NCBI GenBank assembly: GCA_965221695.1
Contig: OZ244905.1
Span: 896,001 to 960,000, forward strand
DNA from: Gammaproteobacteria bacterium
GTDB lineage: Bacteria; Pseudomonadota; Gammaproteobacteria; Eutrophobiales; Eutrophobiaceae
Direction of reading: 5' to 3'
Length of the DNA: 64,000 nt
Shown: one piece after another, positions 39,141-56,388 of the stretch
How the letters are laid out: each line of letters begins with the position of its first letter
Numbering within the stretch: position 1 is the first letter of the stretch
Made by a program: the position numbers and the translations under genes
The notes under the pieces: generated by a model
The model's database searches: none
The model's input: the letters and a program-made list of their open reading frames with translations, nothing else
What the model was told of the DNA's origin: nothing

Positions 39141-39276
39141 CAGCCTGCCCCCGTATGGCGTTGAGCAGTGGCGGAAGTGGTTCGGGGAAATGCCCTGGCC
39201 TGTGCGGATAGTAACGTACTATTGGGGCATACTAATCTCTCATCATGAAGGTATAGATAGTCTTGATCCTGGTAGT

Positions 39277-41550
39277 ATGCTTAACTCTGGGGAAAAACTC
39301 GTGAATGCCCCCACACACTTCAGCGCGTATGATAATGAGCGGATACAGGAAAGCTTTGTGCGCAGGGTGGATGCCGTTAACAGGGAGGCGACGCTGCTGG
39401 TGGAGGGTATTACCTGCCCGTCCTGCATTCGGAAAATCGAACAGAGCCTGAGCGGCCTGCCCGGCGTTGCCGAATTCTCCATCAACTTTTCCAGCCACCA
39501 GGCTAATGTGCGCTGGGATGCGGGCCGCGTGCGCGTCAGTGAGATTCTGGACAACATAGCAGGACTGGGTTACCGGGCTTACCCCTGGGAGGGGCAGCGT
39601 GAACAGGCGCGGTTTGCCGAACAGCGGCGCGCGGGGTTGTTACGCATCGGCCTGGCAGGCGTGCTGGCGATGCAGGTCATGATGATATCCGTCGGTCTTT
39701 ATGCCGGGCAGCATCACGGCATTGGCGAAGAGTTCAGGGACTTCCTGCGCTGGGTTGCCGCGTTGTTGACGTTGCCGGTCTTGATTTACTGCGCGCGGCC
39801 GTTTTTCAGCGGCGCGTATTATGACCTGCGCCGGCTGCGGCCGGGTATGGATGTGCCGGTCTGCCTGGGTATCAGCATTGCATTTGCCGGCAGCGTATGG
39901 GCGACCTGGACGCAGTCAGAACATATTTATTTTGATTCCATCGTAATGCTGGTCTTTTTTCTCTCGCTCAGCCGTTACCTGGAATTCATGGCGCGGCACA
40001 AGGCGAACGGGCAGCTTGCGGGGTTGAAGAAAATCATACCGGCCACAGCCGTCAGGATGGTGGGTGAAGGTTCCGGCCAGGGGCGGGAAACCGTTCCCGT
40101 GGCAGACCTGCAACCCGGAGACTGCGTTGCGGTGCGCCCGGGAGAAATCATCCCGGCGGACGGCACGGTCATCCTGGGACAAACGGACGTAAATGAGGCG
40201 ATTATCACCGGCGAAAGCCTGCCGGTAAGCAAGGGACCGGGGGCGCGTCTGATTGGGGGCAGCGCCAATATCACATCACCGTTGCAGATGCGGGTCGAAC
40301 AGGCGGGAGAAGGGTCCGTGCTGAGGAACATTACCGGCATGGCAGAGCAGGCACAGGCACACAAATCACGGCTGACGGGGTTTGCCGACCGGGTCGCATC
40401 CTGGTTCATTCTCTGTGTGCTCGCGCTTGCGGCGCTGGTCGGGCTGTACTGGTGGCAGACCGACCCGGCATCGGTTCTCCCCGTTATCGTTTCGGTACTG
40501 GTCGTAACCTGCCCTTGCGCGTTGGCGCTGGCAATGCCGAGCGCAGTCACCTCTGCGTCGACAGCCCTGATGAAGCGGGGTATTGCCTGCAAGTCTTCCG
40601 ACGCGCTGGAGCAGGTGGCCGGCGCCGACGAGGTCATCTTCGATAAAACGGGCACCCTGACAACCGGTCAGATGCAACTGCGCGAGGTGACGCCTTGTTC
40701 CGCGTTGGATGCCCGGCGCTGCCTCACGATTGCCGCGGCGTTGGAGACCGATTCCGAGCACCCGCTGGGCAGGGCGCTGGTTCGTGCCGGCTGCACGGAA
40801 AATATTGCCGCGGACGGCGTAGTGAATTATCCCGGCGGTGGCATATCCGGCAGTGTGGACCAACGCAGGTATGTTATCGGTAGCCGGCGTTTTATAGAGA
40901 CGCAAACAGGCATCACAGAGTTTCCCGACACGCCGGGGCCGGCCGCGGCCACACGGGCGTTCCTCGCAGATGACAACGGGATTCTTGCAGTATTTACTTT
41001 TACCGACGAACTCCGTCCCGGCGCCACAGAGCTGGTCCGCTATGTCAAGCGCCGCGGGAAAAGGACTATTCTGCTCAGTGGCGACCAGCGCAATCCTGTC
41101 GCAGACATTGCCGCGCGCCTGGAATTTGACGAGTTTCATTTCGAATTGGAACCCGGCGACAAGCTGGAATTCATCAACCGCAGAACCCGCGACGGTCGTG
41201 CCACGGTTATGCTGGGCGATGGCATCAACGACGTGCCGGTGCTGGCGGCAGCCACGGTGGCTGTTTCCATCAATGAAGCCGCGGACCTGGCCAAGGTTCA
41301 TTCAGATATTGTCATTTTAAATGACAACATGGAAAATGCCGCGTTTATCGTACTGCTGGGGAACCGGACCATGAGGATAATCAGACAGAACATAGCATGG
41401 GCTATCGGGTATAACCTGGTGGCCTTACCCGCTGCCTGCCTGGGATACCTGGCCCCGTGGATGGCCGCCATCGGCATGTCGCTCAGCTCCCTCGTCGTGG
41501 TCTTAAATGCGTTGCGCCTGCTTGCAACGGAGCCGCCACACGCGGCGTGA
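39277..41550 (+). CDS. ccoI: P1B-type copper ATPase CcoI/FixI
   Basis: CPSC HMA domain, TGES, CPC, DKTGT, GDGIND; followed by ccoS; start uncertain (39277 or 39301). Confidence 0.9.
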   Translation: MLNSGEKLVNAPTHFSAYDNERIQESFVRRVDAVNREATLLVEGITCPSCIRKIEQSLSGLPGVAEFSINFSSHQANVRWDAGRVRVSEILDNIAGLGYRAYPWEGQREQARFAEQRRAGLLRIGLAGVLAMQVMMISVGLYAGQHHGIGEEFRDFLRWVAALLTLPVLIYCARPFFSGAYYDLRRLRPGMDVPVCLGISIAFAGSVWATWTQSEHIYFDSIVMLVFFLSLSRYLEFMARHKANGQLAGLKKIIPATAVRMVGEGSGQGRETVPVADLQPGDCVAVRPGEIIPADGTVILGQTDVNEAIITGESLPVSKGPGARLIGGSANITSPLQMRVEQAGEGSVLRNITGMAEQAQAHKSRLTGFADRVASWFILCVLALAALVGLYWWQTDPASVLPVIVSVLVVTCPCALALAMPSAVTSASTALMKRGIACKSSDALEQVAGADEVIFDKTGTLTTGQMQLREVTPCSALDARRCLTIAAALETDSEHPLGRALVRAGCTENIAADGVVNYPGGGISGSVDQRRYVIGSRRFIETQTGITEFPDTPGPAAATRAFLADDNGILAVFTFTDELRPGATELVRYVKRRGKRTILLSGDQRNPVADIAARLEFDEFHFELEPGDKLEFINRRTRDGRATVMLGDGINDVPVLAAATVAVSINEAADLAKVHSDIVILNDNMENAAFIVLLGNRTMRIIRQNIAWAIGYNLVALPAACLGYLAPWMAAIGMSLSSLVVVLNALRLLATEPPHAA

Positions 41551-41566
41551 TAGACGGAGCGCACCG

Positions 41567-41740
41567 GTGGAAGTCATTTATTTGCTGGTTTTCATCTCCC
41601 TGGTCCTGGTGCTGGTCATTTCCTGCGTGTTTTTCTGGGCTGTGAAAAGCGGGCAGTATGACGACCTGGAGGGGCCGCGCCACCGGATCCTGGCCGATGA
41701 TGATTCCATCCAGGACGGCAAAGAGAGCAACAACGGATAA
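41567..41740 (+). CDS. ccoS: cbb3 oxidase assembly protein CcoS
   Basis: VEVIYLLV...FFWAVKSGQYDDLEGP.HRILADD. Confidence 0.92.
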   Translation: MEVIYLLVFISLVLVLVISCVFFWAVKSGQYDDLEGPRHRILADDDSIQDGKESNNG

Positions 41741-41744
41741 CAAC

Positions 41745-43034
41745 ATGCATGATCTACAACAACTGGCCTTGATCTGGGCCAGTGTTTTTATCGCCTCCTG
41801 GCTCGCGGCAAAGACCAAGCTTACGCCGGTTTTGTATTTTCTCGCGGCCGGTTGCGTGATGGTCAACCTGGGTTGGTTACCCACCCACAGCACGCCATTC
41901 ATTGCCGGGTTTGCCGAGGTCGGCATTATCCTGATCATGTTCGCGCTGGGGTTTGAAGCCAATCCGAACCATTTCGTCCGCAGCATGAAACGCAGTTGGG
42001 GTATTGCGCTGTTCGGCGCGCTGGCGCCGTTCATCGCTGCCTGGTCTTGTGCACAGTATTTCTGGGGCGACGATAACATCGCGCTGTTATGCGGCCTGAC
42101 GATGACTGCCACCGCAGTATCGCTGACCATGGTCTCATTGAAGAGCGAGGGCTTGCACCTGTCCGCCGCGGCAAACGGGATCATGACGTCGGCAATCATT
42201 GATGATATCGCTTCTCTTGCACTGGTTGCCATTTTGATCCCGGTAGCCACCGGGTCGAGCCAGTTGTCGATTGCCGGTATCGGGTTGATTGTATTAAAGG
42301 CGCTGCTGTTCTTTATTATCATCGTTATAATTGCCGTCTGGATCATGCCGCACAGCGCCGACAGGGGGCTGCTGAAACGCTATCCTGTGCTGGGGCGCTT
42401 CGGGATGATTAACCTGCTCGCGATAGACAATGGCAGCAAGGCAACCCTGGTCATCCTGCTTGTTGCGATCGCGATCAGCCTGCTCGCCCACCAACTGGGG
42501 CTGCACCCGGCCGTCGGCGCTTACATGGCAGGGCTGATTATCAGGGAGCAGTATTTTCATTTCGGCAGTAAGGAAAACAAGGATGTCCTGTACCGGGACA
42601 CGCGCAGGATCATTGATGATGTCGCCTTTTCCTGGATTGGCCCGATCTTTTTCGTCAACCTGGGGACCGAGATCGTCTTAGACCCGGTCATATTTTTTTC
42701 CGTTCTCGATGAAACCCTGGTCCTGCTGTGCAGCGTGTTTTTTGCCCAGGTGATTTCCGCCGCGGCGGCGGCGCGCTACACCGGCAACTTCAACTGGCAG
42801 GATTCCATGATGATCGGTTTCGGCATGCTGGGGCGGGCGGAACTGGCGTTTGTCGTGATGAATATCGCCTATATTCAACACGGCATCTTCACGGAGGAAG
42901 TGTTCTACACCCTGATGTTCACCATTTTCTGGCTGAACGTGGCCGTTCCCGTCACCATCCGATTATGGCGACCGTATTACTCAGGGGACAAACCACTGCC
43001 CGGCAGCAAAACAGGGCCTTACAGGCCGGGTTAG
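41745..43034 (+). CDS. Cation:proton antiporter (CPA2 family)
   Basis: Multi-TM; IIDDI, GMLGRAELAF. Confidence 0.88.
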   Translation: MHDLQQLALIWASVFIASWLAAKTKLTPVLYFLAAGCVMVNLGWLPTHSTPFIAGFAEVGIILIMFALGFEANPNHFVRSMKRSWGIALFGALAPFIAAWSCAQYFWGDDNIALLCGLTMTATAVSLTMVSLKSEGLHLSAAANGIMTSAIIDDIASLALVAILIPVATGSSQLSIAGIGLIVLKALLFFIIIVIIAVWIMPHSADRGLLKRYPVLGRFGMINLLAIDNGSKATLVILLVAIAISLLAHQLGLHPAVGAYMAGLIIREQYFHFGSKENKDVLYRDTRRIIDDVAFSWIGPIFFVNLGTEIVLDPVIFFSVLDETLVLLCSVFFAQVISAAAAARYTGNFNWQDSMMIGFGMLGRAELAFVVMNIAYIQHGIFTEEVFYTLMFTIFWLNVAVPVTIRLWRPYYSGDKPLPGSKTGPYRPG

Positions 43035-43061
43035 CGTTTTCTCCTCTTGCCTGGTTCGCTG

Positions 43062-43505
43062 TCAAGGCCGGACGGGATGGCGGTCGGCAATACGCCATTC
43101 GGCGGGTTTGCCGCTGGCGTCATACAGTTCAATGGTGAACACGCCAGGGTGTGATGGCACCGCAATACCGGTGGTCATGCGTGTTTCCAAATCGTTTTTT
43201 CCGGCAACCGACTTCCACACGGGTGTGTCCCCGATCAGTTTGCCATTGAAGCCCAGTTTTAATTCCTGCGCTTTTGAACCGGTCAGGGTTACACGTATAT
43301 CCAAGGTATTGCCCGGATGGAAATCACCGCGGGTCTCCAGCATTACCATGCCATTTGCGAGTGGGCGTGTGCCGTGCTCCTGCCACATGTCCGGGCCGGA
43401 ACACATATATGGGGTCAGGGCAAAGCTGAGCATAATCATTGCCAGGGAGGGCCAGCGCCAGACACCCATTCCTTGCCAGACCAGCGCGGCGGGCTGGATT
43501 TTCAT
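43062..43505 (-). CDS. Hypothetical membrane-anchored protein coupled to the PepSY gene (FpvH-like position)
   Basis: ATGA overlap with the upstream gene; one N-terminal hydrophobic segment. Confidence 0.6.
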   Translation of the reverse strand: MKIQPAALVWQGMGVWRWPSLAMIMLSFALTPYMCSGPDMWQEHGTRPLANGMVMLETRGDFHPGNTLDIRVTLTGSKAQELKLGFNGKLIGDTPVWKSVAGKNDLETRMTTGIAVPSHPGVFTIELYDASGKPAEWRIADRHPVRP

Positions 43506-44623
43506 GCCGCTGCAACGGGGAGTTGCGGACCTGGTGAACACTTACCGGCAATCCGCAGACCGTAAATTACCACACCGGTCAGCGACAGCATGGACAACAG
43601 CAGTCCGAATACGAACCAGATAACCCGGGTAAGCAAACCGCCCCAGGTTCCGAAGTGTAATGGATCGGCCATCTCCGACAGACGTTGGTGAAAATTCAGT
43701 TGTTCACCGCGATAGCTGCCGGTGACCGTGAACGCCGACGGGTCTACAAACACCGCATTGGCTCTGTTGCGCACCAATAGCGCCCGGGCCTGGCCCGTCA
43801 CCGCAATACTTGCGGAAGGTTGTCCGGGAAAGTGTATCTCACTCACGTCAAGATCAGGCTCATGCGCACGCGCGACGGCTACGATACGATCCAGGTCACC
43901 GCCTGAGAGACCTACAGACAGCTCAGCGTCCCGCGCAAGCGCGGTTTCTGGCCTTGGCAACGGCGGGGCAGCGCCTCCCAGGGATTTTTCCGCCAGGTAC
44001 CACACGCCTGTCAACGCGATAACAGGGATAAACCAGAGCGACCAGATCGCCCCCAGGCGATGCAGGCCCCCGACCCAGCGGCGGGTTCTGCGCTGAAAGC
44101 GGGGAGCACGAAAGTAACCAGTCCAGAACCGCCTGTACACGATGATGCCGGTCACCATCGACAGGATCAGAACGAACGAAAACATACAAACGATGGGTAT
44201 GCCGATAGCATTAGGCAGCATCATGTGACGGTGGGTTTGGCGCAGGAAGCGTTGCACGTTGAACCACCCGGTTACACCCCGGTACTGGCCGCTGTAGGGG
44301 TCGATCCATACGCGCAACAATTTCCCGGAAGGCGACACGAACACCGCCTGCACAGCCCACCAAGGGTCCTTGTGCGCCAGCAACGCGTTCAGCTTTCCAT
44401 CCGGATAAGCTGCGCGCGCGCTGGCATAAATCTGCCCCCAGGTAGTTGTTTGGCGCGATTTGCCGGTTTTATCCGAATACGCGACGCGCATTTCCGGGTT
44501 CAGCAACCAGTCAATCTCGTAGCTGAAAACCGCCAACGTGCCGGTGATAAGGATAAAACTCATCATCAAAGAGAGTTTCAGCCCCAACCAGGAATGGAGC
44601 GCCCAGAGTGCACGGCGTTTCAA
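43502..44623 (-). CDS. PepSY-associated TM-helix protein (iron-regulated, FpvG-like)
   Basis: LHSWLG, THR, LHR, PLHFGTWGG conserved histidines. Confidence 0.88.
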   Translation of the reverse strand: MKRRALWALHSWLGLKLSLMMSFILITGTLAVFSYEIDWLLNPEMRVAYSDKTGKSRQTTTWGQIYASARAAYPDGKLNALLAHKDPWWAVQAVFVSPSGKLLRVWIDPYSGQYRGVTGWFNVQRFLRQTHRHMMLPNAIGIPIVCMFSFVLILSMVTGIIVYRRFWTGYFRAPRFQRRTRRWVGGLHRLGAIWSLWFIPVIALTGVWYLAEKSLGGAAPPLPRPETALARDAELSVGLSGGDLDRIVAVARAHEPDLDVSEIHFPGQPSASIAVTGQARALLVRNRANAVFVDPSAFTVTGSYRGEQLNFHQRLSEMADPLHFGTWGGLLTRVIWFVFGLLLSMLSLTGVVIYGLRIAGKCSPGPQLPVAAA

Positions 44624-44686
44624 TGGTCTGCACTTACCTTGCGCGGGTAGTCTTCTGTTAGCTTATCCCTGTTGTATTTCGGCTTT

Positions 44687-47002
44687 TCAGAACTCATAGG
44701 CTGCGGACACCGCAAAAGTGCGTAGGGCCGCCGTACCGACACGGATAGCGCCAAGCAATTCGCTGGCAAATGCCTGGGCCTGGCGATATTCCTTATCGAA
44801 CACGTTGCGCACATTGACCTGGATTTTCCACGGTCCACGCTTGTAGTATCCGGCAACATCGACCTGCTCCCAAGAACCATACTGCGCGCGATTTTCATAA
44901 CTGACGTAAACATCACCCTGGTGGAACAGGCCGCCACCCAATCCCAACAGGCCGTTCAAAACGGAAATTTCGTAAAACGTAAACAGGTTGAAATTATGTT
45001 TTGCTATTCCAGGCAAACGGTTCCCCTTGGTGAATTGAGCGCCGAATTCACCGGTTCCACCTGTACTGAACGAATTGTCGATATAGCTGTAACCGGCGCG
45101 TATTCGCCAATAATCAGTAATGTTGCCAACCAGTTCGACCTCAAGACCATCGCTGGAAATGCCGCCGATATTGTCGTAACGGATATCGCCTGCCAGGGTC
45201 GCATTCCCTTCGCTATCGAACGGATTTGCCACATAAGGCACATCTTCAAGGTCGACAGTGTATAGCGCGCCGGTCAGCAACAGATCCTCATCGAACAATG
45301 CCCACTTGAAACCTAGCTCCCAGGCTTTCGAGGTTTGTGGGTCGACAGTGCGATCATCCATGCCAAGCAGGCCGCCGGATGGCGTATAGCCCTGGGAATA
45401 ACTCAGATAGGTCGAAAAGCTGTCTGCCGGTGAATAGACCAGTCCGCCCCTGAAACTGAAATCATCGTCGGTAAAATCACCATTCTTATCCTCGAAGTCC
45501 GAATAACGACCACCGACAAGCACGCCGACACGCTCACCAAAACGAATATAGTCCAATACATTGACGCCAAGTTCGTTGAAGTCCTGGTTCGTTGATGTGC
45601 CCCGGCTGCGAATCCGGAAAATTACCGACTCCGTGGCCCGGGTGATATCCGGGTCGTTGAGCTCTTCCTGCGTGAACTGCGTGAAGTACTCGCCTGAGGC
45701 AACATTGAAAAACACATTTCGGTCGCCGCGGAAATTCTCTGATCGTGTGCTGAAATCTTCCCACGTCACCGAAGCAAGGATTTTGTGTTCAAGCTGCGCG
45801 GGGCCCTGAAAATTCAGGATATTCTTGAATGCGATCCGTTGTGTTTTGCCGGAACCCTCTGACATACGGGGCTGAATCAGAACCAGGTCAGCAACTGGCG
45901 AGCCCGGCGGTCCTACTATATCCCGGTTCGACGTGATAAAGCGTGGCGACGAATCGACATTGAGTTTGTCGTTATCGGTACGCGCATAGCTCAGTTCTGC
46001 CTGCCAGAATTCACCGAAGCGGCGCTCCAGGACTACATGGAAACGCTTGGATTCGGCCTCGGTCTTGTCGTTATGGTTAGGAATCCCGAAGAACTGGCTG
46101 CTGTCCAGCCGGTCACTATAGAAATAACCATCAACCATATTGCCGTCCAGTACCTGTCCACGATCCTGTGTGTAGTTATCGTCGATGTACTCATAACTGA
46201 GGTTCAGACTCGTTGAAGCGCCAAGTTCAAAGGTGAGCGATGGGTTCAGGAGCAGGCGCTTGCGAAACACCTCATCCCGGTAACTGTCCGTATCCTGGTA
46301 AGCGCCAACCAAGCGGTAAGCCACGCTGTCACCCTCCCATAGGGGAACAGGACCGGTAATATCAAACTCGGCCTTATAGAAGTCATCGCTCCCGCCAATC
46401 AGCTCTACACTCATATTCTGCTCGAACTGAGGACGCTTGGTCACATAATTGATAATTCCTCCCGGTTCCCCTTGCCCATAGAGCAAGGCAGAAGGTCCCT
46501 TGAGCACATCAATGCGCGCGATATTGGCGGTTTCCGTCGAGGGGATGTTGGATGCATTAAGCGCATTATTGATGCGCGCGCCGTCCTTGTAAATTGACTG
46601 TGATGCATCGAAGCCACGGATGGAGAATTTCTCCTCGCCGCCATTCCCGGTCTTGAATTTGGTCACGCCGGCGACGTTACGCAGCGCATCATCAACATTA
46701 TTCACCTGCTGGTCCAACAACAGGTCCTGGGGGATAACACTCACCGCCGCCGGGGTGTCAAACAGCGACAGGTCCAGGCCGAGGGCAGTCTGTGATGACG
46801 CCGGCAGATAATCACGCCGATGCGCGGTTACCCGCACCTCTTCGATTGTATCGTCCCCGGCAACATTCGCACCGGAATCTTCGGCCTGTCCCGCCCACGG
46901 GGCTAAGACGCACAGGATAGCTGCGGGAATCGCGCCAACCCGAATACCGTATTGGCGCAATAGTAAATTGACGAACCGGCAATATGCCTTGCCAAATCTC
47001 AT
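44687..47002 (-). CDS. TonB-dependent siderophore-type receptor
   Basis: TonB box IEEVRVTA, IDVLKGPSALLYG...GGIINYVTKRP, C-terminal YEF. Confidence 0.92.
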   Translation of the reverse strand: MRFGKAYCRFVNLLLRQYGIRVGAIPAAILCVLAPWAGQAEDSGANVAGDDTIEEVRVTAHRRDYLPASSQTALGLDLSLFDTPAAVSVIPQDLLLDQQVNNVDDALRNVAGVTKFKTGNGGEEKFSIRGFDASQSIYKDGARINNALNASNIPSTETANIARIDVLKGPSALLYGQGEPGGIINYVTKRPQFEQNMSVELIGGSDDFYKAEFDITGPVPLWEGDSVAYRLVGAYQDTDSYRDEVFRKRLLLNPSLTFELGASTSLNLSYEYIDDNYTQDRGQVLDGNMVDGYFYSDRLDSSQFFGIPNHNDKTEAESKRFHVVLERRFGEFWQAELSYARTDNDKLNVDSSPRFITSNRDIVGPPGSPVADLVLIQPRMSEGSGKTQRIAFKNILNFQGPAQLEHKILASVTWEDFSTRSENFRGDRNVFFNVASGEYFTQFTQEELNDPDITRATESVIFRIRSRGTSTNQDFNELGVNVLDYIRFGERVGVLVGGRYSDFEDKNGDFTDDDFSFRGGLVYSPADSFSTYLSYSQGYTPSGGLLGMDDRTVDPQTSKAWELGFKWALFDEDLLLTGALYTVDLEDVPYVANPFDSEGNATLAGDIRYDNIGGISSDGLEVELVGNITDYWRIRAGYSYIDNSFSTGGTGEFGAQFTKGNRLPGIAKHNFNLFTFYEISVLNGLLGLGGGLFHQGDVYVSYENRAQYGSWEQVDVAGYYKRGPWKIQVNVRNVFDKEYRQAQAFASELLGAIRVGTAALRTFAVSAAYEF

Positions 47003-47121
47003 TGATTAGTTCCTCCATCGATGAGAGTCTGGCTGGCGGCTTGAGATCGCGCATCAGTACGGCAAAGGCGATGAAGCTGGCTGGCTTGACTGAAATAATT
47101 GTTAAGCTATATTTCGCATCA

Positions 47122-47140
47122 AATGCGAATAATTCTCATT
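47122..47140. promoter_or_regulatory. Fur box upstream of the TonB receptor
   Basis: aatgcgaataattctcatt; TTGACA on the minus strand at 47162-47167. Confidence 0.75.
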
Positions 47141-47335
47141 ATTAACTATGATGCGTATGCCTGTCAAGAAAAATCGGATTTCGAGCAACCCTCCTTGCTA
47201 TGAGGCATTGTATTATTGCTCCCGTCTGTGCGCGCAAACCCTGAATTAATCCACCAAGAGGTTTTAGCCCTATCATGTCAAACTATTACATATCGTTTGT
47301 GTAACGGTTTACTCTTCCGGCGCGAACTGGAGGGT

Positions 47336-47491
47336 TCACTTGGTCAATATCAGTTTGTTATTCGCGGTGATACGCAGAAGATAACGCTCATTGTTATGCA
47401 AAATATAAATCTCCCGGTCCCGGCCGATCAGTTGATGACTGTCCACCTGTTTCGGCACCGGCGTTTTTTTTATCTCACCCGTGTTTGCCAT
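47336..47491 (-). CDS. hemP: Hemin uptake protein HemP (not in ORF track)
   Basis: Hand translation MANTGEIKKTPVPKQVDSHQLIGRDREIYILHNNERYLLRITANNKLILTK, ending in the family signature KLILTK. Confidence 0.9.
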   Translation of the reverse strand: MANTGEIKKTPVPKQVDSHQLIGRDREIYILHNNERYLLRITANNKLILTK

Positions 47492-47497
47492 TATGAT

Positions 47498-47719
47498 TTA
47501 ATGGCTGTGGATACTCAGGTTATCGTGCGCCTTGTGTCCATAGTGTTTCCTGTATATGGAGCTAAACGCCCCGCAGATATTTTCAAACACCTCTTCCCGC
47601 AAACGCAGGCTCAGCGGACCGATATGCACGTGATACATCCGGCAGTCGGGGCATTGGGTAATGGAACAGTATTCAGATTGTACAACAGTCACTGTTTGAC
47701 AGGTTGCATGCTGGCTCAT
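47498..47719 (-). CDS. Small Cys/His-rich hypothetical protein
   Basis: SD ggag, CPDC.MYHVHIGPLSLRL; lies between a Fur box and hemP. Confidence 0.75.
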   Translation of the reverse strand: MSQHATCQTVTVVQSEYCSITQCPDCRMYHVHIGPLSLRLREEVFENICGAFSSIYRKHYGHKAHDNLSIHSH

Positions 47720-47751
47720 GGTTTTACTCCATCACAAGATATATTAATGCT

Positions 47752-47770
47752 AATGAGAATAGTTATCATT
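47752..47770. promoter_or_regulatory. Fur box upstream of the Cys/His protein-hemP operon
   Basis: aatgagaatagttatcatt; TTGACA-N16-TAAGCT immediately upstream on the minus strand. Confidence 0.8.
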
Positions 47771-47921
47771 TAGCTTATCATCCAATAAATCCGTGTCAAG
47801 TATTTATTTCATTATTTCATTACGCGAATAAAGTCCTAGCGACCAGGTGTGAAGCTGAAGGATTGACTTTACTCAAGAGAGCGCAGAAAAGGCGGCACAT
47901 GAATCATTCAGAGAACATGTA

Positions 47922-47962
47922 ACTGCCCGGCAGCAAAACAGGGCCTTACAGGCCGGGTTAGC
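47922..47962 (+). repeat. 41-bp exact copy of the antiporter 3' end (42995-43035)
   Basis: actgcccggcagcaaaacagggccttacaggccgggttagc at both sites. Confidence 0.92.
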
Positions 47963-48076
47963 TCGGATATTGCGCCAATGGATGCGATGATCGCACAGGA
48001 TTTTTCCGGGCCGGCTGTTAGAGAATGTGTAACCGGCGATTTATACAGAAATATTTACAGTCCCGCTGTAGAACTG

Positions 48077-48802
48077 TCACTCAAATACCCGGGGTTCAAA
48101 ACCAGCCCGGTTGACAATGCTGGCGCTGCTGCCGGTCGCCCTGATAACGAATAATCCCTGCCGCTCGGCATACCTCACCACACTCGAATCCGCCTTCAGG
48201 TAGGCCACGGCTCCCAATACCCGATGACCACGGTAACGGCGCATCCAACTCGTGAAATTCTCCAACTTCTCCACAAACTCCGTTACCGCCTCAGACCGTA
48301 ATGTCGTCTTTACTTCCACAACCACCACATCGGTCGTATTATCTGCAACTATGTCAAACTCGTAACTGTGGCCATTGCGTTGCCCTTTCACATTGGTTGA
48401 AGTCTGCTCAACCGTTATCTGTCGGGTTTGCAACAACGGTAACAGGTCGCCTTCGACCAGGCTTTCCATCAGTTTGCCCCATTGACTGGTAAACAATGCC
48501 TCCGTCTTTTTTATTTGTTCAGAGGTTTCTTTTACTTGCTGCTCGGTCTCTTTAACCTGTTGTGCGGTTTCCCTCACCTGCTGCTCTGTTTCCTTCAGCC
48601 TTCGGTCAGTCTCTTGCATCTGCCGATCGGTCTCCTTCAGCCTTCGGTCAGTCTCCTGCATCTGCCGAGCGGTCTCCTTCTGACGTTCGGATAATTCCTT
48701 GTTCCACACAGACAGTTCTTTATTGTTTTGTGAAACCTGGCGTAGTATGGCCCAAATTTCATCCGGGGTGGCGGGGGTGGAATTTGTAGGTTTATGTTCC
48801 AT
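48077..48802 (-). CDS. Coiled-coil heptad-repeat protein with C-terminal PD-(D/E)XK-like domain (DUF3782-like)
   Basis: (K/Q)ETDR heptads; WGKLMESLV...EFDIVA...VEVK. Confidence 0.8.
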   Translation of the reverse strand: MEHKPTNSTPATPDEIWAILRQVSQNNKELSVWNKELSERQKETARQMQETDRRLKETDRQMQETDRRLKETEQQVRETAQQVKETEQQVKETSEQIKKTEALFTSQWGKLMESLVEGDLLPLLQTRQITVEQTSTNVKGQRNGHSYEFDIVADNTTDVVVVEVKTTLRSEAVTEFVEKLENFTSWMRRYRGHRVLGAVAYLKADSSVVRYAERQGLFVIRATGSSASIVNRAGFEPRVFE

Positions 48803-48980
48803 TATCCTTCTCCTGTTATAAGTTGAATGTGAGATTAACAACAAGCGCCAGTTTGCTTGTCAAGCTTATGTTAACACGTATTGGCGCAAGCCAACATAAG
48901 AAGTTCCGCCGTTCACTTGTTAATAATGGAAACTAACGCGCAAACCTTGAATTAATGTGCGAAAACGTTATAGTCACCTC

Positions 48981-49586
48981 ATGTCAATACCAGTGCATAC
49001 CGCAAATTCCTGTGCTCACACGCTACTGTTCAGCGCGCTCCTGCTAACGACTCCGGGGCTGCTCGCGAGCAGCGTCAAACTCAGCGATAAAGCGGTGCAG
49101 GAAGTGGAAAAAACGGTGATTGATTCTGCGGAGGAGGAAAAACAACGCCAGGCCATTGCGGTGATGCTGGCCGAATACGAGATTGACGGAAGGAAACTGC
49201 TTGACGGGCTGGATGAAAATCCGGACAGGACCAGGATTGACGAACAGGCCGGCGTCCTCCTGTCTGCGGGTGAGATGATTATGGATTGGGCGCGTTTTCG
49301 TTTGCAACAATGCGATGAATACCTGGAGAAAGCCCGGGAACTCAAGGCAAAGATTGCCGACATTACCCTGGAAACGCTGGAGAAAGATTATCATCATGAC
49401 GGCGCTTTGCCTAAAGCGCCACCGGAGTGTTACCACGTAAAAGATACTTTCGTACATCCCGCCACGGTACTGGCGCTTACCCGCGATGACCCTGCCCTTG
49501 CAGAGGAAACCATTACCGCTATCAGGGCGGAGATCCAGGAAGTGCTAGGCCATACGGAAGTCGTCCGGCAACTGGTCGTGTATTAA
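48981..49586 (+). CDS. Hypothetical exported protein with His/Cys motifs
   Basis: Signal-peptide-like segment; a diverged copy differs mainly at synonymous sites, which supports coding; start uncertain. Confidence 0.8.
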   Translation: MSIPVHTANSCAHTLLFSALLLTTPGLLASSVKLSDKAVQEVEKTVIDSAEEEKQRQAIAVMLAEYEIDGRKLLDGLDENPDRTRIDEQAGVLLSAGEMIMDWARFRLQQCDEYLEKARELKAKIADITLETLEKDYHHDGALPKAPPECYHVKDTFVHPATVLALTRDDPALAEETITAIRAEIQEVLGHTEVVRQLVVY

Positions 49587-49648
49587 CCCGTCACCATCAG
49601 GTTATGGCGACCTTATTATTCAGGAGAAAAGCCACTGCCCGGCAGCAA
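49587..49648 (+). pseudogene. 62-bp diverged copy of antiporter 3' region (42948-43009)
   Basis: 7 substitutions, 6 synonymous in the antiporter frame and one D to E. Confidence 0.88.
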
Positions 49649-49683
49649 TAGTACTCTTTCAATTAAATTATGAAAGAGTACTA
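49649..49683. repeat. 35-bp TA-bounded palindrome
   Basis: tagtactctttca-attaaatta-tgaaagagtacta. Confidence 0.8.
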
Positions 49684-50421
49684 GAGTTCCTCAGGCGGTT
49701 CGTTATTTTCATAACTTCCTATCCTGTCGCGGACCATATTTTCCAGCCTAACCACATCGTCAATGTGGAGACGATTTTTCTCTTTCCGAATCAGTCCGCA
49801 AGAAGTAAGCTCCGTCATCTCCCTGGATATCGCTTCCCTGTGGGTGCTGATGCGGTTGGCGAGTTCAACATGTCTTGGCGCCGGTGATATGGTCGCGGTA
49901 TTAGGGTTGTCCATATTTCTCCAGGCAAGTCGCAGCAGTTCAGCATGGAGTCTGTTTCTGACATCCAGGGAACTGAATTCCACAATCCGTCGTGACAGTA
50001 TCCTGACAAGTTGGGCAAAGCGCATAAACGTCCTGGACATGACCGAAGGATATAACTGTAAAATCCACAGAAAATTCTCAGCGGACATTGCCGCAAGCAG
50101 AGTATTGTCAAGGCTGACCACATAGGCAGAGCGGGATTTTCTGTCCATGGCGGTAATTTCACCGAACATTTCTCCAGCGACCTGTTCTCCAAAAGATATT
50201 TCTCTTCCCGAAGCGGTATAAATCGCGACCTTGACCTTGCCGCTGATGATGAAATAAACATCAGTGTCAATATCATTATCGGCTGTGATGATGTCTCCCT
50301 CAGCAAATTGCAATCCCCGGCATTTATCAGCAATCATCTTACGCTCGTTGAAAGAAAGGTCACTAAATATCTCAACTGCGGATAATACCCCTGCTGATAT
50401 CTCGATAGTTTTTCTTGTCAT
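49681..50421 (-). CDS. Crp/Fnr family transcriptional regulator
   Basis: cNMP domain GEMFGE...RSA; HTH ELANRISTHREAISRE. Confidence 0.9.
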   Translation of the reverse strand: MTRKTIEISAGVLSAVEIFSDLSFNERKMIADKCRGLQFAEGDIITADNDIDTDVYFIISGKVKVAIYTASGREISFGEQVAGEMFGEITAMDRKSRSAYVVSLDNTLLAAMSAENFLWILQLYPSVMSRTFMRFAQLVRILSRRIVEFSSLDVRNRLHAELLRLAWRNMDNPNTATISPAPRHVELANRISTHREAISREMTELTSCGLIRKEKNRLHIDDVVRLENMVRDRIGSYENNEPPEEL

Positions 50422-50461
50422 TATTATCTCCCGTGTGGTTGATAGCCCGTCCAGGAAAATA

Positions 50462-52129
50462 TCACTCTTGGACTCTTGTACTCTGTCTGTGCAGATCTTG
50501 CCGGACACGCCGTAATGTGCTCTGACGCGCAACCTCCCACATCAAAGCCCACTTGAACTTATAACAGGCGCCATCGATATTCCCTGTCTTTAACAGTTCC
50601 CCGCTTCTGAGCAGCGAATTCAATGCATGATCAAGCTCGTTCCTGTTGTGGGGCCACATCTCTGCTAACAGAGAATAGTTGAACTTGCGACCTAACGCGG
50701 CGCCAATTTTCGCAGCTTTCCTGACAACAGGTTCATGCCGATCCAATCTTGCCATCAAAACAGTCCAGATCTTGTCGGGTATCTGGAATTCTTCCCGGCT
50801 TGGCTGCCGGCTTCCGTTGGTTTTACGTCGCGTTTGCAACGCTTTTCTGGTTAATTCTTCCAAGAACATCGGTATACCATCGCCTTTGGCGATGATTCCA
50901 GACATACTATGAGCAGAAATCTGTCTATTACCAGCGCGCCTGAGAATAAAAGCTCGGGCGGCGGCCTGATGCAACGGGCTAAGGCGAATAGTTTCCACAT
51001 GCCCTTGTTTAAGCCAGTTTTTCGGCGGTTGAAAATCTGGCTGGTGGGATATAGCCAGCAGTATCGGCTTATCCGGCGTCTGCGCTATCAGTTTGTCGAT
51101 TAATGCCAGCGCCGCGCTATCGCAGCGCTGCGCGTCTTCCAGAATGATCAGGCAAGGCCAGTCCGAGACACCTTTTCCGGATAGTTTTTTCCCGGCACAA
51201 AAATTTTCGGTAGCCGTTCCGCTTATGACCTGCAATTGCGAAATATGCGGGCGTAGGATGTCTTTTATATTCTCAGGCGAACATTGCAGGATAAATTGTT
51301 CCGAACATTGTCTGGATAGATTTATTCGCAACGTCTCCAGCAGCTTTGTTTTTCCCGTTCCTGTCTCACCGGAAATCAGGGCCACTCTGCCGGACTGAGT
51401 TCGAGCCAGGTCCCAGAGTTCGACGAGCCGGCCATATTTTTTTACCCTACCCGCCAGTTCCATCAGTTTGGCTGGTTTACTCGGGTAGGCATGAGTTTGT
51501 ATATTTGAAGGCCCGGCAACCTGCCATAGTTTCTGTGGCATTTTATATCCGCGCAATGATGAATTTCCCAGATATTTCAGTTCAAAAGAGTTGTGTATCA
51601 GATAATGCGTGTTCCCACACACCATAACCGTATCCGGTTGCGCCTCAGACTGTAATCTTGCGGCCAGATTAGGCGCTTCGCCGATAACGACTTGATCATA
51701 CATCTTGCCAGATCCCCCTGCATCGCCAACCAGCGTCACCCCGGAAGCAATGCCTACGCGAATGGAGATATCTTTCCAATAACTGTTAGCCGCCGCCTTT
51801 CGGATATTGATTGCATTGAGCAGTTCCAGGGCCGCACAAACAGCCCGCACAGCATCATTTCCATAGGCGCGGGGATAACCAAAAAAACTCATGATGCCGT
51901 CTCCCGTGAAACTAGCGGGAAAACCATTGTGACTGTTGATAATTTCAGCGCCGAGCCGCCGGTATGCCAGGATAAGATCCAGCAGGCATTCCGGGTCCAA
52001 TTGCGCAGTCAGGCGAGTCGAATTTACCATGTCACAGAACATGACAGTGAGAAATCTACGTTCAAGATGGCCGGCAGAGTCAAAATGCTGGCGTTGCAGG
52101 TGGGCAGGATGGGAAAAGGCGTATTCCAT
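50462..52129 (-). CDS. Class III adenylate/guanylate cyclase fused to a shortened AAA/STAND-like ATPase
   Basis: FCDMVNST, GDG, GEAPNLAARLQ; Walker A GETGTGKT. Confidence 0.82.
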   Translation of the reverse strand: MEYAFSHPAHLQRQHFDSAGHLERRFLTVMFCDMVNSTRLTAQLDPECLLDLILAYRRLGAEIINSHNGFPASFTGDGIMSFFGYPRAYGNDAVRAVCAALELLNAINIRKAAANSYWKDISIRVGIASGVTLVGDAGGSGKMYDQVVIGEAPNLAARLQSEAQPDTVMVCGNTHYLIHNSFELKYLGNSSLRGYKMPQKLWQVAGPSNIQTHAYPSKPAKLMELAGRVKKYGRLVELWDLARTQSGRVALISGETGTGKTKLLETLRINLSRQCSEQFILQCSPENIKDILRPHISQLQVISGTATENFCAGKKLSGKGVSDWPCLIILEDAQRCDSAALALIDKLIAQTPDKPILLAISHQPDFQPPKNWLKQGHVETIRLSPLHQAAARAFILRRAGNRQISAHSMSGIIAKGDGIPMFLEELTRKALQTRRKTNGSRQPSREEFQIPDKIWTVLMARLDRHEPVVRKAAKIGAALGRKFNYSLLAEMWPHNRNELDHALNSLLRSGELLKTGNIDGACYKFKWALMWEVARQSTLRRVRQDLHRQSTRVQE

Positions 52130-52288
52130 TACAATCGGGATGGAGAAAGCGTAATTTAAGTGTTCAATCGGTCCAGTCAAAATACAATGCCGTCCCTGCT
52201 ACAGCATCAATTCTACTGAACAGGGAGTTCAGTCAAATACTATGTCGCCTCCTGCCTGCGCGGGACAAGCTGTGGACAACTTTTTATT

Positions 52289-52447
52289 TTAATAAACTCT
52301 GAATCAGTTCATCCCGGACTTGTCAGAGCGCGTAAAACAAAAAAGCGACTTTCGTTTTACTCACTAAATCAATGACATAAAGTCATCGATTTCGACAGCA
52401 CGTCCCTACGCTGCAGGATCCTCTGACTAAATCAGAGATTCTCTTAC
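52289..52447 (-). mobile_element. Full-length MITE copy 4, inverted and diverged
   Basis: aactctgaatcagttcatcccggacttgtcag...ctctgactaaatcagagattctctta. Confidence 0.8.
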
Positions 52448-52519
52448 ATTCTATCAAATTCCCGTTTGCGTGAGAATTATCTCAGAGGTAATTGTTGAAA
52501 GTATAATATTGTCCCGGTC

Positions 52520-53599
52520 CTACCGCAACATCTGATTGACCGCTTCGGTAAATGACGCATATTGGTCGAGTAGTGAGTTTGCCGCATTGAACTGTCCTTT
52601 GGCCCTGATCTCACTGTGTTCGCTATGGCTGCCGAACCGTTTCGGGTCCCATGAGAAATAATCCTCATTTAAGGCATCGGCACAAAACCGGGCCGCCAAC
52701 TCAAGGTATATGGTCAGCGTCGCTGCCGGGACAGCAAGCCATTCCTCCCGCGTGAGCAATTCTCCGGCATGGTGGAAGTAAGCTACAAGCGCCGCTCGGC
52801 AATGAGGTATAGAGAAGTAAGCGTCAGTGGAATCTTCCCCGGCGGGGTTGCACCAGGAACGCAGCGCATCGCCTAGTTCCAGGTAGATCGGCATTCTGTT
52901 CAATGTGTCGAAATCAACCATGCAGAGCGCTTCACGGCCGTCGTTTGAAAAGATGAAATTGGATATCTTCGGGTCGCCGTGAACCATCCTTGCAGCCACT
53001 TCAGGCAATGCCGGAAGCTGGTCCAGACGCGCCAGAATGGCTTCTCCCAAGGGTTTAACCAGCGCGTGCCTGGAATGGCTGCGGCGTTCTGTCAGGCTAT
53101 TTTTCAGTCGCAAAGCATGTAGCGGCGTGTCGTGCGCAGCCGGCTGGTCTGTCTGTAATTCGTAATCAAGCAGCGCCAGAGCCGAATGCACGCGCCCCAA
53201 CATGGCGCCCGCCGCGCGCGCCATATCGGAGTGTTCCAAGCGCTCGTAGACGCTGCCGCTGATATGATTGAATAAACGCCAGACCCATCCGTCTACGCAC
53301 AAATACACCATTCCGCGGGAGTCCGGCAACAACCTGGGAGCCAACAGGCCGGATTGCTGTAAATGGCGGGTTACAATATCGATATCCAGATTTATTTCAG
53401 GGGGGAACCTGCTGTTTACCTGCTGTAATATGTAATCCAGGCCTTTGCTGTCTGTGACGCGATAAGTTTTGTTGATCAGTCCGGTATCCACCGCTCGAAT
53501 TTGCGCGGGAGTGACCGCGTAAGCCGCAAGCACATTTTGGATCTGTTCAGTTGGTAACGCATCCATGACCGGAAAGAATCTCACACCGATCGAATTCAT
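52520..53599 (-). CDS. APH/choline-kinase-like phosphotransferase
   Basis: GLINKTY, HGDPKISNF, VDFDT. Confidence 0.85.
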   Translation of the reverse strand: MNSIGVRFFPVMDALPTEQIQNVLAAYAVTPAQIRAVDTGLINKTYRVTDSKGLDYILQQVNSRFPPEINLDIDIVTRHLQQSGLLAPRLLPDSRGMVYLCVDGWVWRLFNHISGSVYERLEHSDMARAAGAMLGRVHSALALLDYELQTDQPAAHDTPLHALRLKNSLTERRSHSRHALVKPLGEAILARLDQLPALPEVAARMVHGDPKISNFIFSNDGREALCMVDFDTLNRMPIYLELGDALRSWCNPAGEDSTDAYFSIPHCRAALVAYFHHAGELLTREEWLAVPAATLTIYLELAARFCADALNEDYFSWDPKRFGSHSEHSEIRAKGQFNAANSLLDQYASFTEAVNQMLR

Positions 53600-53657
53600 G
53601 CAATTTAGAATCTACACCGCAATCGAATACGACTCGGCGAAATTCTCAAACAAAAGC

Positions 53658-53890
53658 TTGCCAACATTACCCTGGAAGCGCTGGAAAAGGATTATCATCA
53701 TGACGGCGCATTGCCAAAAGCGCCACCGGAGTGTTACCACGTAAAAGACACCTACGTACATCCTGCCACGGCGCTGGCGCTCACTCGTGACGATCCCGCC
53801 CTTGGAGAGCAAACCATTACCGCAATCAGGGAAGAGATCCAGGAGGTGTTAGGGCATACGGAAGTCGTCCGGCAACGGGTCATATATTGA
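53658..53890 (+). pseudogene. 233-bp orphan 3' fragment of the 48981-49586 gene
   Basis: Ungapped alignment to 49354-49586, about 30 substitutions by hand count, no start or 5' half. Confidence 0.9.
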
Positions 53891-53930
53891 ACTGAAAGTC
53901 TTCAAGCAATCGCGCCACCAGGCTGGCACG

Positions 53931-53978
53931 GTGATACACACAAAATATATCTCCCGGTCCCGGCCGATAAGTTGACGA
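53931..53978 (-). pseudogene. hemP remnant
   Basis: caaaatatatctcccggtcccggccgataagttga matches hemP near 47399-47436 (QLIGRDREIYIL). Confidence 0.8.
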
Positions 53979-53989
53979 ATGTATGCCAG

Positions 53990-54028
53990 TTAGAGAAGCT
54001 CTGAGGCTTAATCTCAGAGGTTTCTTAA
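53990..54028. repeat. Mini MITE
   Basis: ttagagaagctctgag-gcttaat-ctcagaggtttcttaa followed by catgg. Confidence 0.75.
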
Positions 54029-54056
54029 CATGGGTATCCTGTAAAAACCTGTGATT

Positions 54057-55376
54057 TTATCGGACCCAGGTTATTATCCAGGATGGTTCGTCTGCTACCG
54101 CAGCAAAGTCTGTATCGATCCAGAAGCCTGTGACCAGGGCCAGTCTGTCGTTGATAAAGATGAGGGGTATGCGCTCACGTAGCCACGGCGGGGTTCTGGC
54201 TTCCTGGAACAGTTTCTTCAGCTTATGCCGGCAAGACCTGCCTGGCAGACTAATTTTCTCTCCACCGCGACGATAACGGATTTCCACCCGCGCGCCGGCG
54301 CAGACCTGCTGCTTGAGCCCACTACCGCGGCCTGCTGTGGCAGTCAATTCTCCATCATCCAGGCAGCAGGGCGCCGGCAAATCCCAGACCCGTACCGCTG
54401 ATCTGTCAAATGCTTTCAAGGGCGCGCCAAGGTAAATGTATTGCCCGTAGCGTTTTATCTCCGCGCCGTTCCAACTGACCCGCGCCATTGAGTCGCGTCT
54501 GGAATTGATGATATCGGAAAGAATATGGCTCAGTTGGCGGCTGTCAGGAAGCGTTAAATCCAGCATACGACACCAGTAACGGACCACGTTCTTCTGTCTG
54601 GGAGAGGACAGTCGTTGCATCCGATCGACATACGCGATGCCTGAGTCTTCAGCGCGGCAGAACAACAGGTCCTGGCGGGCCAGATCATTCAGAAGTTCTT
54701 GAGTTTCAGCTAGGATGTCGATGGTTCGGCTGATCGGGAGCGCTACCGAAGGCCACTTGTGCTGAATTACCGGCAACGCTTGATGGCGGAGGTAATTCCG
54801 ATCCAGTTGTATATCGCTGTTGGAAGGGTCTTCAATCCAGCGCAGGCCATGAAGTTGAGCGTAGGTCAATAACTGGGCGCGTGAATAATTCAGCAGCGGA
54901 CGCGCATGAAACCCTTGCCCGAACCTGCGCACAGGCCGCATCGATACCAGTCCCAAGACACCAGCCCCGCGCAACAGCCGCAACAGGAACGTCTCAACCT
55001 GATCGTCCTGATGATGCGCGGTCAGCAAGACCTCGCCTTCTGCAAGGATAGCTTCAATTGCCCCATAGCGTTTGCGCCTGGCCCAGCTTTCAGGGCTTTC
55101 CTTATTCGGACTGCTTGCGTCGACATCCAGCGTTTCCAGTTTTACGCCCAGCGCGCGGCATATCTTTCGGCAATGCCGGACCCAAGAGCCGCTTTCCGGA
55201 TGCAGATGATGGTTAATATGCACAGCCCTGAACTGGCGATCGGAATCCTTGGCGAGAGTGGACATCAGAAACAACAGCACATGGGAATCGAGACCGCCGC
55301 TGTAAGCTACAAGGTAGCGCCCAGCATCCGGAAGCGTGTCAAGGAAAGCCGCGATGCTTTCAGCGCTGAGCCGCAT
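54057..55376 (-). CDS. tilS: tRNA(Ile)-lysidine synthetase
   Basis: AYSGGLDS, TAHHQDDQVET, RNYLR. Confidence 0.95.
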   Translation of the reverse strand: MRLSAESIAAFLDTLPDAGRYLVAYSGGLDSHVLLFLMSTLAKDSDRQFRAVHINHHLHPESGSWVRHCRKICRALGVKLETLDVDASSPNKESPESWARRKRYGAIEAILAEGEVLLTAHHQDDQVETFLLRLLRGAGVLGLVSMRPVRRFGQGFHARPLLNYSRAQLLTYAQLHGLRWIEDPSNSDIQLDRNYLRHQALPVIQHKWPSVALPISRTIDILAETQELLNDLARQDLLFCRAEDSGIAYVDRMQRLSSPRQKNVVRYWCRMLDLTLPDSRQLSHILSDIINSRRDSMARVSWNGAEIKRYGQYIYLGAPLKAFDRSAVRVWDLPAPCCLDDGELTATAGRGSGLKQQVCAGARVEIRYRRGGEKISLPGRSCRHKLKKLFQEARTPPWLRERIPLIFINDRLALVTGFWIDTDFAAVADEPSWIITWVR

Positions 55377-56344: not shown

Positions 56345-56388
56345 GATACGGGTTAATCCACTGCCCAGCCGGATTTTTCAGATACAGG

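Follow-up and report, generated by a model that had tools for sequence, protein, structure and literature searches.

Orphan gene ends between an antiporter gene and tilS in a marine gammaproteobacterium are probably products of homology-anchored recombination and rearrangement

In the chromosome of a gammaproteobacterium of the family Eutrophobiaceae (assembly GCA_965221695.1, contig OZ244905.1), incomplete copies of genes lie scattered between an intact cation antiporter gene and tilS, which raises the question of how they came to be there. The window that we analyzed is the 64,000-nucleotide (nt) stretch from position 896,001 to 960,000 of this contig. The original prediction took the interval for a stack of captured 2–5 kb cargo cassettes, each bounded by an orphan 3′ gene end, and proposed an undescribed system as their source. 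Comparison with relatives leads us to another reading, to which we give a probability of about 0.6: the whole interval would represent two conserved neighborhoods that were joined and then patched by homology-anchored recombination and rearrangement, with no dedicated system. Judged from gene order, only two blocks appear to be true additions, a pair of genes named N and E and an iron-uptake block, both at the last 41–87 nt of the antiporter gene.

The source genome (G000) is a single 3.54-Mb contig, C1; window coordinates are used unless C1 is stated. The comparison set consisted of 22 other species-representative genomes of the genus (G001 to G022). Open reading frames (ORFs) of the window were scanned for Pfam and NCBIfam families, and each repeat piece was compared by BLAST with the whole genome. 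All the repeats listed in the original prediction are present where it had placed them. Along the interval, the genes run in the order ATPase, antiporter, iron block, hemP, p73, N, E, Crp, cyclase, kinase, and tilS-accA-dnaE, with the pieces of the antiporter gene (A) and of the exported-protein gene (E) interleaved as A, E 5′ scar, A′, E, A″, E′. The anchor genes and their incomplete copies, called scars, are as follows:

41658–43034, plus strand: antiporter A (CPA2 / Na_H_Exchanger), intact (Pfam PF00999, E-value 4.7e-35; NCBIfam CPA2)
47231–47296, plus strand: E 5′ scar, with the promoter, ATG, and ~7 codons of an E allele (direct repeat, 76% over 51 nt with 48937–48987)
47903–47962, plus strand: scar A′, of which 41 nt (47922–47962) are identical to the antiporter end
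48957–49586, plus strand: E, intact exported-protein gene (from ORF and translation)
49587–49648, plus strand: scar A″, 62 nt ending 26 nt short of the end of an antiporter allele, between the E stop and the Crp terminator
53645–53890, plus strand: scar E′, the last 81 codons and stop of an exported-protein allele, an open frame with no start
53932–53991, minus strand: scar hemP′, a 60-nt internal hemP piece beside tilS

Within the genome, A′, A″, E′, and hemP′ are confined to the present locus (E-values 1e-12 to 1e-62) and so do not belong to any dispersed repeat family. An origin of the 41-nt and 62-nt repeats from genome-wide repetitive extragenic palindromic (REP) or miniature inverted-repeat transposable elements (MITEs) was ruled out, as their copies are restricted to the locus.

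The last 87 nt of the antiporter gene (42948–43034) served as the reference for A′ and A″. Its last 41 nt, with one extra base (42995–43035), are repeated exactly at 47922–47962 (E-value 1e-16), as first noticed from the sequence. The 19 nt ahead of this exact stretch show 12 matches to the antiporter, and an in-frame TAA stands directly before the 41 identical bases. A′ is nearly identical to A and so does not qualify as a diverged allele. A″ begins right after the E stop codon and matches 42948–43009 at 55 of 62 nt (89%). Its start and its seven changes are as originally described, but the count of six synonymous changes is not: among the six changed codons, five are synonymous and one replaces Asp with Glu (P = 0.006 against a random expectation of ~25%). 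The sites at which A″ differs, which are few, carry letters common in other relatives. The antiporter-end repeats measure 87 nt (A″ of G008), 62 nt (A″ here), and 41–60 nt (A′), and the three copies overlap only in 42995–43009 (15 nt), with differing edges. No match to an exact 22-nt antiporter-end pattern was obtained when metagenome contigs were searched for other contexts of it.

E′ aligns with the 3′ end of E without gaps (212 of 246 nt match, 34 changed), and its left edge is sharp, 42 of the 60 upstream nt being different. The changes fall in 30 codons and are synonymous in 19 of them (P = 8e-6 against a random expectation of 25%), whereas the other 11 code for a different amino acid; the initial estimate had been about two thirds synonymous. 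The synonymous bias points to purifying selection acting on the scars in the past. This part of the original argument stands, but the bias does not set the scars apart from local duplicates as had been claimed, since long-lived functional paralogues are compatible with it. In the allele tree that had been suggested (243 nt, 10 sequences), E′ is sister to the E of G000 and G008 with a support of 100/99, a position that does not separate import from old paralogy.

Whether the blocks to the right of A″ are cargo can be judged from their neighbors in other species. They begin with a palindromic element and three genes:

49649–49684: palindromic repeat element of 36 nt (92% copy at C1:2542458–2542493)
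49681–50532, minus strand: Crp-like regulator (Pfam)
50462–52180, minus strand: class III cyclase-AAA protein (Pfam)
52520–53599, minus strand: APH-type kinase (Pfam)

In 18 of the 22 genomes, Crp adjoins the antiporter (16 genomes) or a remnant of it (G003 and G009). G008 lacks this adjacency, and G006, G011, and G012 are not judgeable (fragmented or no match). Because of this conserved adjacency, the Crp-cyclase-kinase trio appears to be backbone and not cargo, and A″ reads as an old antiporter end still in its ancestral place adjoining Crp. The identity of the trio to all relatives is at baseline (64–81%), and G008 and G019 carry it in two copies. The homology of A″ ends at the palindromic element, which also gives the Crp-like gene its TAG stop codon and whose 12-nt core occurs 21 times in the genome. 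In G004, one of the 16 genomes, the spacer between antiporter and Crp holds a 2.5-kb insertion (L124:5851–8405) with an IS66-type transposase, recognized from translation alone, and a second ORF of 225 amino acids (aa).

Some further observations concern the trio. The antiporter remnants beside Crp in G003 (L128:3894–4073) and G009 (L127:3864–3986) are short fragments. The trio is conserved across the genus, with the cyclase missing in the group of G020, G018, G007, and G002, and in PADLOC it gives only domain-level matches to Pycsar cyclase and cNMP-binding proteins. In the cyclase/kinase spacer lies a multicopy element of ~150 nt (52294–52446), found six more times in this genome and dozens of times in relatives.

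The first of the two additions, N and E, is found at the antiporter in only one of the 22 relatives, G008, which has the order antiporter-spacer-N-E-A″-spacer-N2-tRNA-Arg and thus carries the unit [antiporter end-spacer-N] twice (93–95% identity between the units). The joint between E and A″ (TAA followed directly by CCCGTCACC) is the same in both genomes and therefore arose once, after which it was inherited or transferred. E itself shares 96% aa identity with its G008 counterpart and has no Pfam or NCBIfam family; its true start is probably the ATG at 48981, from alignment of promoters and starts, and its orthologues adjoin tilS in relatives.

The antiporter gene is 97–98% identical to that of G008 and 85–86% to those of the G020 clade at the nucleotide level. 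Over the whole region, the ATPase-antiporter flank of at least 10 kb and the N-E part are 97–98% identical to G008, against 69–78% from Crp to dnaE. Such a tract within such a baseline suggests that ATPase-antiporter-N-E was recently exchanged with the G008 lineage and that N and E would have come as part of it, either direction being compatible with the data. Within A″ the high identity fades (5 of 62 nt differ, compared with 2.6% overall), as would be expected if the right-hand crossover had fallen in the short stretch of homology to the antiporter end, although on few sites. A random 20-kb region also shows a two-level mosaic against G008 (93% versus 75–78%), and is uniformly 77–87% identical to the G020 clade. 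The two levels recur genome-wide and indicate what may be extensive recent exchange between the lineages. Against this one other species, the genome of this marine genus is a strong mosaic, with patches of 91–98% in a background of 69–80% (for example L095:2900–9706 versus its flanks).

A public run, X2, contains contigs identical to the source genome together with a second ATPase-antiporter allele that carries the letter of G008 at 37 of 38 listed variant sites, and likewise a G008-like allele of N. Both lineages mixed in one sample would explain these alleles and the uneven segment depths, and would give an opportunity for DNA exchange.

The second addition lies between A and A′ and is made up of these genes:

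43062–43541, minus strand: 159-aa protein of the iron-uptake module
43502–44623, minus strand: PepSY_TM protein (Pfam)
44687–47002, minus strand: TonB-dependent receptor (Pfam)
47336–47491, minus strand: hemP (Pfam hemP, E-value 2e-16)
47498–47719, minus strand: p73, a 73-aa Cys-rich gene

Positions 43036–47333 have no DNA match in any of the 22 genus genomes. The nearest TonB receptors reach at most 64% aa identity and come from marine metagenome-assembled genomes, where three such loci share the order receptor-PepSY-159-aa protein. A search for a donor gave no close candidate: species-representative genomes yielded 21 loci with at best 63% aa identity, and metagenome contigs yielded 7, of which the top value of 64% came from a partial match. 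The three-gene TonB module is thus best read as foreign DNA. By comparison, 47334–47808 is 79–81% identical to the tilS-adjacent hemP-p73 of G018, G020, G019, G001, and G006, which would make the iron block a chimera of a foreign TonB module and a genus-type hemP-p73. As a whole, the block is bounded by the exact 41-nt repeat of the antiporter end.

Between the upstream region of the receptor and hemP sits the E 5′ scar, which continues like a G018-type allele and, in the alignment of gene starts, is closer to the alleles of other species than to intact E. We read it as the old promoter and start of a resident E copy. Since it is a 5′ piece and lies to the left of intact E, it breaks the rule, put forward earlier, that every scar is a 3′ end to the right of its intact gene. 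Two mutually inverted AT-rich sequences of 21 nt (47121–47141 and 47751–47771) stand ahead of the receptor and of the 73-aa/hemP pair, respectively; by their resemblance to the Fur consensus, they are candidate Fur boxes.

On the other side of the interval, two features complete the list:

53609–53645: putative rearrangement breakpoint in the upstream spacer of the kinase
54057–55376, minus strand: tilS (Pfam; synteny), the start of the conserved tilS-accA-dnaE backbone

In 12 of the 22 genomes, E lies at most 8 kb from tilS. It abuts tilS directly in G007, G002, G021, and G011, and a haem-type block plus hemP-p73 stands between the two in G020, G018, G019, and G001. Because E adjoins the tilS region in these 12 relatives, E′ and hemP′ would be old gene copies still in their ancestral place adjoining tilS. 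The hemP′ scar, which had been taken for another gene end, is present but is an internal piece, with 78% identity to hemP (26 of 27 in its core). A REP-like hairpin lies at 53995–54033, between hemP′ and the tilS stop, and has many similar short copies genome-wide. With the trio next to the antiporter and E near tilS in relatives, these blocks of the supposed stack of cassettes are read as backbone.

In relatives that have both on one contig, the ATPase-antiporter-Crp-(cyclase)-kinase and E-(hemP/p73)-tilS-accA-dnaE neighborhoods are 170–225 kb apart, in a relative orientation opposite to that of the window. The joint between the kinase and E′ had been read as a cassette boundary and coincides instead with a break in synteny. 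A block, X, comes after the kinase in every one of the seven relatives whose flank was fetched; in the source genome, X stands flipped and 197 kb away, at C1:1139930–1146561. The upstream spacer of the kinase is likewise split, its proximal part remaining at 53600–53625 and its distal part lying at C1:1146668–1146797, where it adjoins unrelated DNA. The kinase/E′ joint therefore appears to be a chromosomal rearrangement breakpoint. A simple reciprocal inversion between the kinase spacer and E as the sole event was rejected, as C1:1146798–1146853 joins X to an unrelated block without the 5′ part of E.

The repeated pieces, the gene order across the genus, the fact that relatives lack the inserts, the mosaic of identity levels, and the absence of integrases are all observed; from them we infer what can be said of the event order, the transfer direction, and the recombination pathway. 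Incoming DNA would pair through the homologous ATPase/antiporter region by RecA-type recombination, and its far end would be joined illegitimately or within the short gene-end homology, that is, by homology-facilitated illegitimate recombination or a Campbell-like insertion-duplication. The incoming allele would thereby complete the gene, and the resident end would be displaced downstream. A Campbell-type single crossover of a circular fragment would equally fit the exact repeats, both the 41-nt one here and one of 108 nt at another locus (see below). A separate large rearrangement of a ~197-kb block may have set the kinase beside the truncated E′. Because the A and E fragments are interleaved and the reciprocal product of the inversion is missing, at least four joint-forming events are needed, to which no order is assigned. 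Homology-facilitated accretion, as first proposed, thus explains the two insertions at the end of the antiporter gene better than any other route considered, but not the other blocks.

Several points weigh against this reading. The interleaving of A and E fragments would require several events, and the product expected of a simple inversion, the 5′ part of E beside X, is not at the other junction. The switch from 19 degenerate nt to a 41-nt repeat without a single mismatch calls for a crossover or conversion at that very point. No donor of the TonB module was found in species-representative genomes or metagenome contigs. Sequencing depth is uneven, with the antiporter at 10.1 and the iron block at 3.4 in run X1, and at 93–110 and 46 in X2; this leaves room for variants without the iron block, although depth is weak evidence. 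Natural transformation in the source organism is putative: the genome has ComEC and DprA, but 10–11 of 14 control genomes match them too, so their evidence is weak. Finally, the import of alleles is inseparable from an old duplication within the genome, given that E′ is sister to the E of G000 and G008, and the tandem [antiporter end-spacer-N] of G008 and the doubled trio of G008 and G019 indicate that segmental duplication is active in the genus.

The last point leads to a serious partial rival, in which tandem or segmental duplication or template switching produced local copies that diverged as functional paralogues and were later truncated, with no foreign alleles. The duplicated units of G008, where E stands between [antiporter end-spacer-N] and [antiporter end-spacer-N2], and the doubled trio speak for it; E′ is the closest relative of E, and the 8.4 kb that were fetched beyond tilS in G008 contain no E, which could mean that E has moved. 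Against these stand the foreign 43036–47333, matched in none of the genus genomes, and the ATPase-A-N-E tract, whose identity to G008 so far above baseline requires transfer between lineages. In addition, hemP′ and intact hemP are 22% different, and the 5′ scar of E is nearer to alleles of other species than to intact E. Local duplication as the whole explanation is unlikely.

The enzymes and sites that a dedicated system would need were also searched for. Pfam scans of 42948–53978 detected no recombinase or transposase domain, in agreement with the original prediction, and genome-wide there are only two Phage_integrase matches (ORFs of 296 and 299 aa, taken as XerC/D from size alone) and no resolvase or serine recombinase. 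Neither an IntI integrase in or near the interval nor an attC-type family of inverted repeats common to the unit ends was found. The ends of the blocks bear no terminal inverted repeats and the duplications are 41–108 nt long, which does not match a composite transposon or insertion sequence. No motif was common to the junction sequences, and the repeat boundaries differed at every junction. For microhomology, the illegitimate joints concerned are 43035/43036, 49586/49587, and 53644/53645, and 12 of 19 nt match ahead of A′. A dedicated cassette-capturing system is quite unlikely in our view.

Site-specific tandem accretion is the closest alternative to the favored mechanism. A trans-acting integrase would have used an att site in the antiporter 3′ end and would later have been lost, as for cis-mobilizable elements (CIMEs), whose accretion is also said to have been described by Pavlovic in 2004 and Bellanger in 2011. 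Each inserted block is indeed bounded by same-orientation direct repeats of a gene 3′ end, and 42995–43009 is common to all three antiporter-end copies. Tandem arrays of integrase-less elements accreting at gene 3′ ends are described by Guedon et al. (2017; PMC5704250). Unlike the CIMEs presented there, the locus has no cognate integrase in the genome or at the site in relatives: apart from the two XerC/D-sized matches there is no tyrosine integrase, and in the 18 relatives that have the junction of antiporter and Crp no integrase lies there, G004 having its IS66-type transposase instead. The repeats are of unequal extent (87, 41–60, and 62 nt) and are diverged alleles rather than identical cores, and the blocks contain no mobility genes or remnants of transfer or integration genes. 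Furthermore, the E′, hemP′, and E 5′ scars lack the 15-nt core common to the antiporter-end copies, and E′ and hemP′ cannot be att sites of the same system. We regard such accretion as highly unlikely.

An artificial origin, in which interleaved alleles of two co-occurring strains were joined at repeats during assembly, was weighed using the contigs of two runs from different studies over 40000–58000. These contigs cross the E/A″/Crp, kinase/E′, and E′/hemP′/tilS joints with 0 differences, so these joints are not assembly artifacts. The 41-nt copies exceed the word size of the contigs, which break there and leave the borders of the iron block unbridged. Alternative joints listed for these runs had sides of only 20–28 nt or involved MITE copies and were set aside. 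The second, G008-like alleles of ATPase-antiporter and N in X2 and the unequal segment depths in X1 and X2 would suit a chimera. On the other hand, the genome is a single 3.54-Mb contig, and G008, assembled independently, has the same A-N-E-A″ order and the same E/A″ joint, making a chimera extremely improbable. Of two loose contig ends in X2, that at 49649, considered as an alternative junction, derives from the other copy of the palindromic element (C1:2542458–2542493), and that at 47922, 8 letters long, is ambiguous.

Similar structures exist elsewhere in the genome. The self-comparison proposed with the original prediction yielded 42 low-copy local direct-repeat pairs, 3 of them at the present locus, and the ORF context was viewed for 18. 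A TonB receptor gene (C1:131389–133674) has its last 108 nt repeated 2.4 kb downstream (107/108 matches; region C1:131389–136098, L099:1389–6098), and between the copies lies an AbiLi/AbiLii pair (AAA_21 and RloB) with no integrase and no N gene. In at least six relatives in which both were matched (G020, G002, G021, G015, G016, and G022), nothing separates the receptor gene from the esterase gene downstream of it. The copy flanking the AbiL pair is near-identical and is thus not a diverged allele. AbiL homologues occur at other places in relatives, at nine loci, none with such gene-end flanks; only one locus, in G003, has 108-nt flanking repeats, which are an unrelated MITE-like sequence. The AbiL cassette therefore does not carry its own ends. 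A second case is another patchwork (C1:236902–243655, L100), in which an amidohydrolase gene has a copy of its 3′ end, with 86% identity, 5 kb further downstream. An RTX-repeat protein is encoded in between, among other genes, and the region has on its left a 97%-identical tract common to G008. Gene-end duplication around small inserts without integrases thus appears to be a recurrent outcome in this genome.

The AbiL case also bears on the possibility that N makes gene-end duplications beside itself, as a mobile or recombination-promoting agent comparable to a homing endonuclease or Rpn. Its features are:

48077–48844, minus strand: N, a coiled coil with a PD-(D/E)XK/Hjc-like domain, DUF3782-type (Pfam Hjc, 2e-4)

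N stands directly beside A′, and in G008 each antiporter-end copy is followed by an N gene. The family includes a PD-(D/E)XK/Hjc-like domain, although the Hjc match of N is marginal (21.6 bits against a cut-off of 21.1), and a database search returned 4431 homologues, some with the UniRef name DUF3782. It is multicopy in the genus, with 1–30 matches per genome in 20 of the 23 genomes, often in tandem. Yet the spacer and 41-nt end are conserved beside no other N copy, only G008 matching outside the coding part; the second N copy of the source genome has no flanking low-copy repeat, and the AbiL insertion has its 108-nt duplication without any N gene. We consider a causal role for N very doubtful. 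DUF3782-type tandem arrays reach about nine copies, as at G001:C12:933914–941500, and the source genome has two copies in total.

A broader idea is that an integrase-free route operates across the genus, inserting small operons (iron uptake, N and E, the AbiL pair) at the 3′ ends of conserved genes and rebuilding the gene, and that a genome-specific factor, such as REP-like hairpins on stop codons or the DUF3782 family, promotes it rather than chance joints. We think this rather improbable.

The process would then be of a described kind and not a new kind of mobile system, contrary to the original proposal. Homology-facilitated illegitimate recombination and insertion-duplication have reportedly been studied in naturally transformable bacteria by Prudhomme in 2002, by Meier and Wackernagel in 2003, and by de Vries and Wackernagel. 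One-sided homology traps foreign DNA there, and an illegitimate joint inside the anchor gene leaves the resident end duplicated downstream. The A/A′, A/A″, and TonB-receptor/AbiL structures would match the expected product. The difference is that the mechanism is known from experiments elsewhere and is deduced here from DNA comparison, and that a Campbell-type crossover fits the 41-nt exact repeat just as well.

A second described process is the C-terminal displacement of Rhs and Vibrio type VI secretion system (T6SS) effector-immunity loci, in which, according to Kirchberger et al. (2017; PMC5361080, with Jackson et al. 2009 cited there for rhs), a homologous anchor is combined with an illegitimate far joint and the arrays then move by ordinary homologous recombination. 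Judged by that account, the loci are alike in having an intact gene followed downstream by orphan, same-orientation 3′ pieces of older alleles, with additions upstream of the old end and no integrase. They are unlike in that the anchors here are ordinary genes, a cation antiporter and an exported protein, and not polymorphic toxins, in that the additions number only two and follow no selective logic of the kind seen in retained immunity genes, and in that some of the scars would come from chromosomal rearrangement and not from displacement. Integron arrays also add small units promoter-proximally and push older ones downstream, but here there is no IntI and no attI/attC-like site common to the unit ends, and the units hold whole operons in both orientations.

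The locus clearly illustrates, in nature, how recombination anchored in homology can add DNA at ordinary genes, in a genome without integrases, with the AbiL pair between 108-nt gene-end copies as an independent supporting case. Laboratory experiments and polymorphic-toxin loci have been the subject of much work on such events, which are rarely documented as a chromosomal entry route for uptake and defense cassettes. In practice, the synteny of relatives should be checked before orphan gene ends are called cassette boundaries.

A last observation concerns the gene at the left edge of the region:

39085–41550, plus strand: P-type ATPase

The 5′ extension of this ORF (GTG at 39085) crosses a highly repeated element (window 39011–39205, up to 95 other matches). 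The ATPases of relatives align only from residue 67–71, and its true start is probably further downstream.

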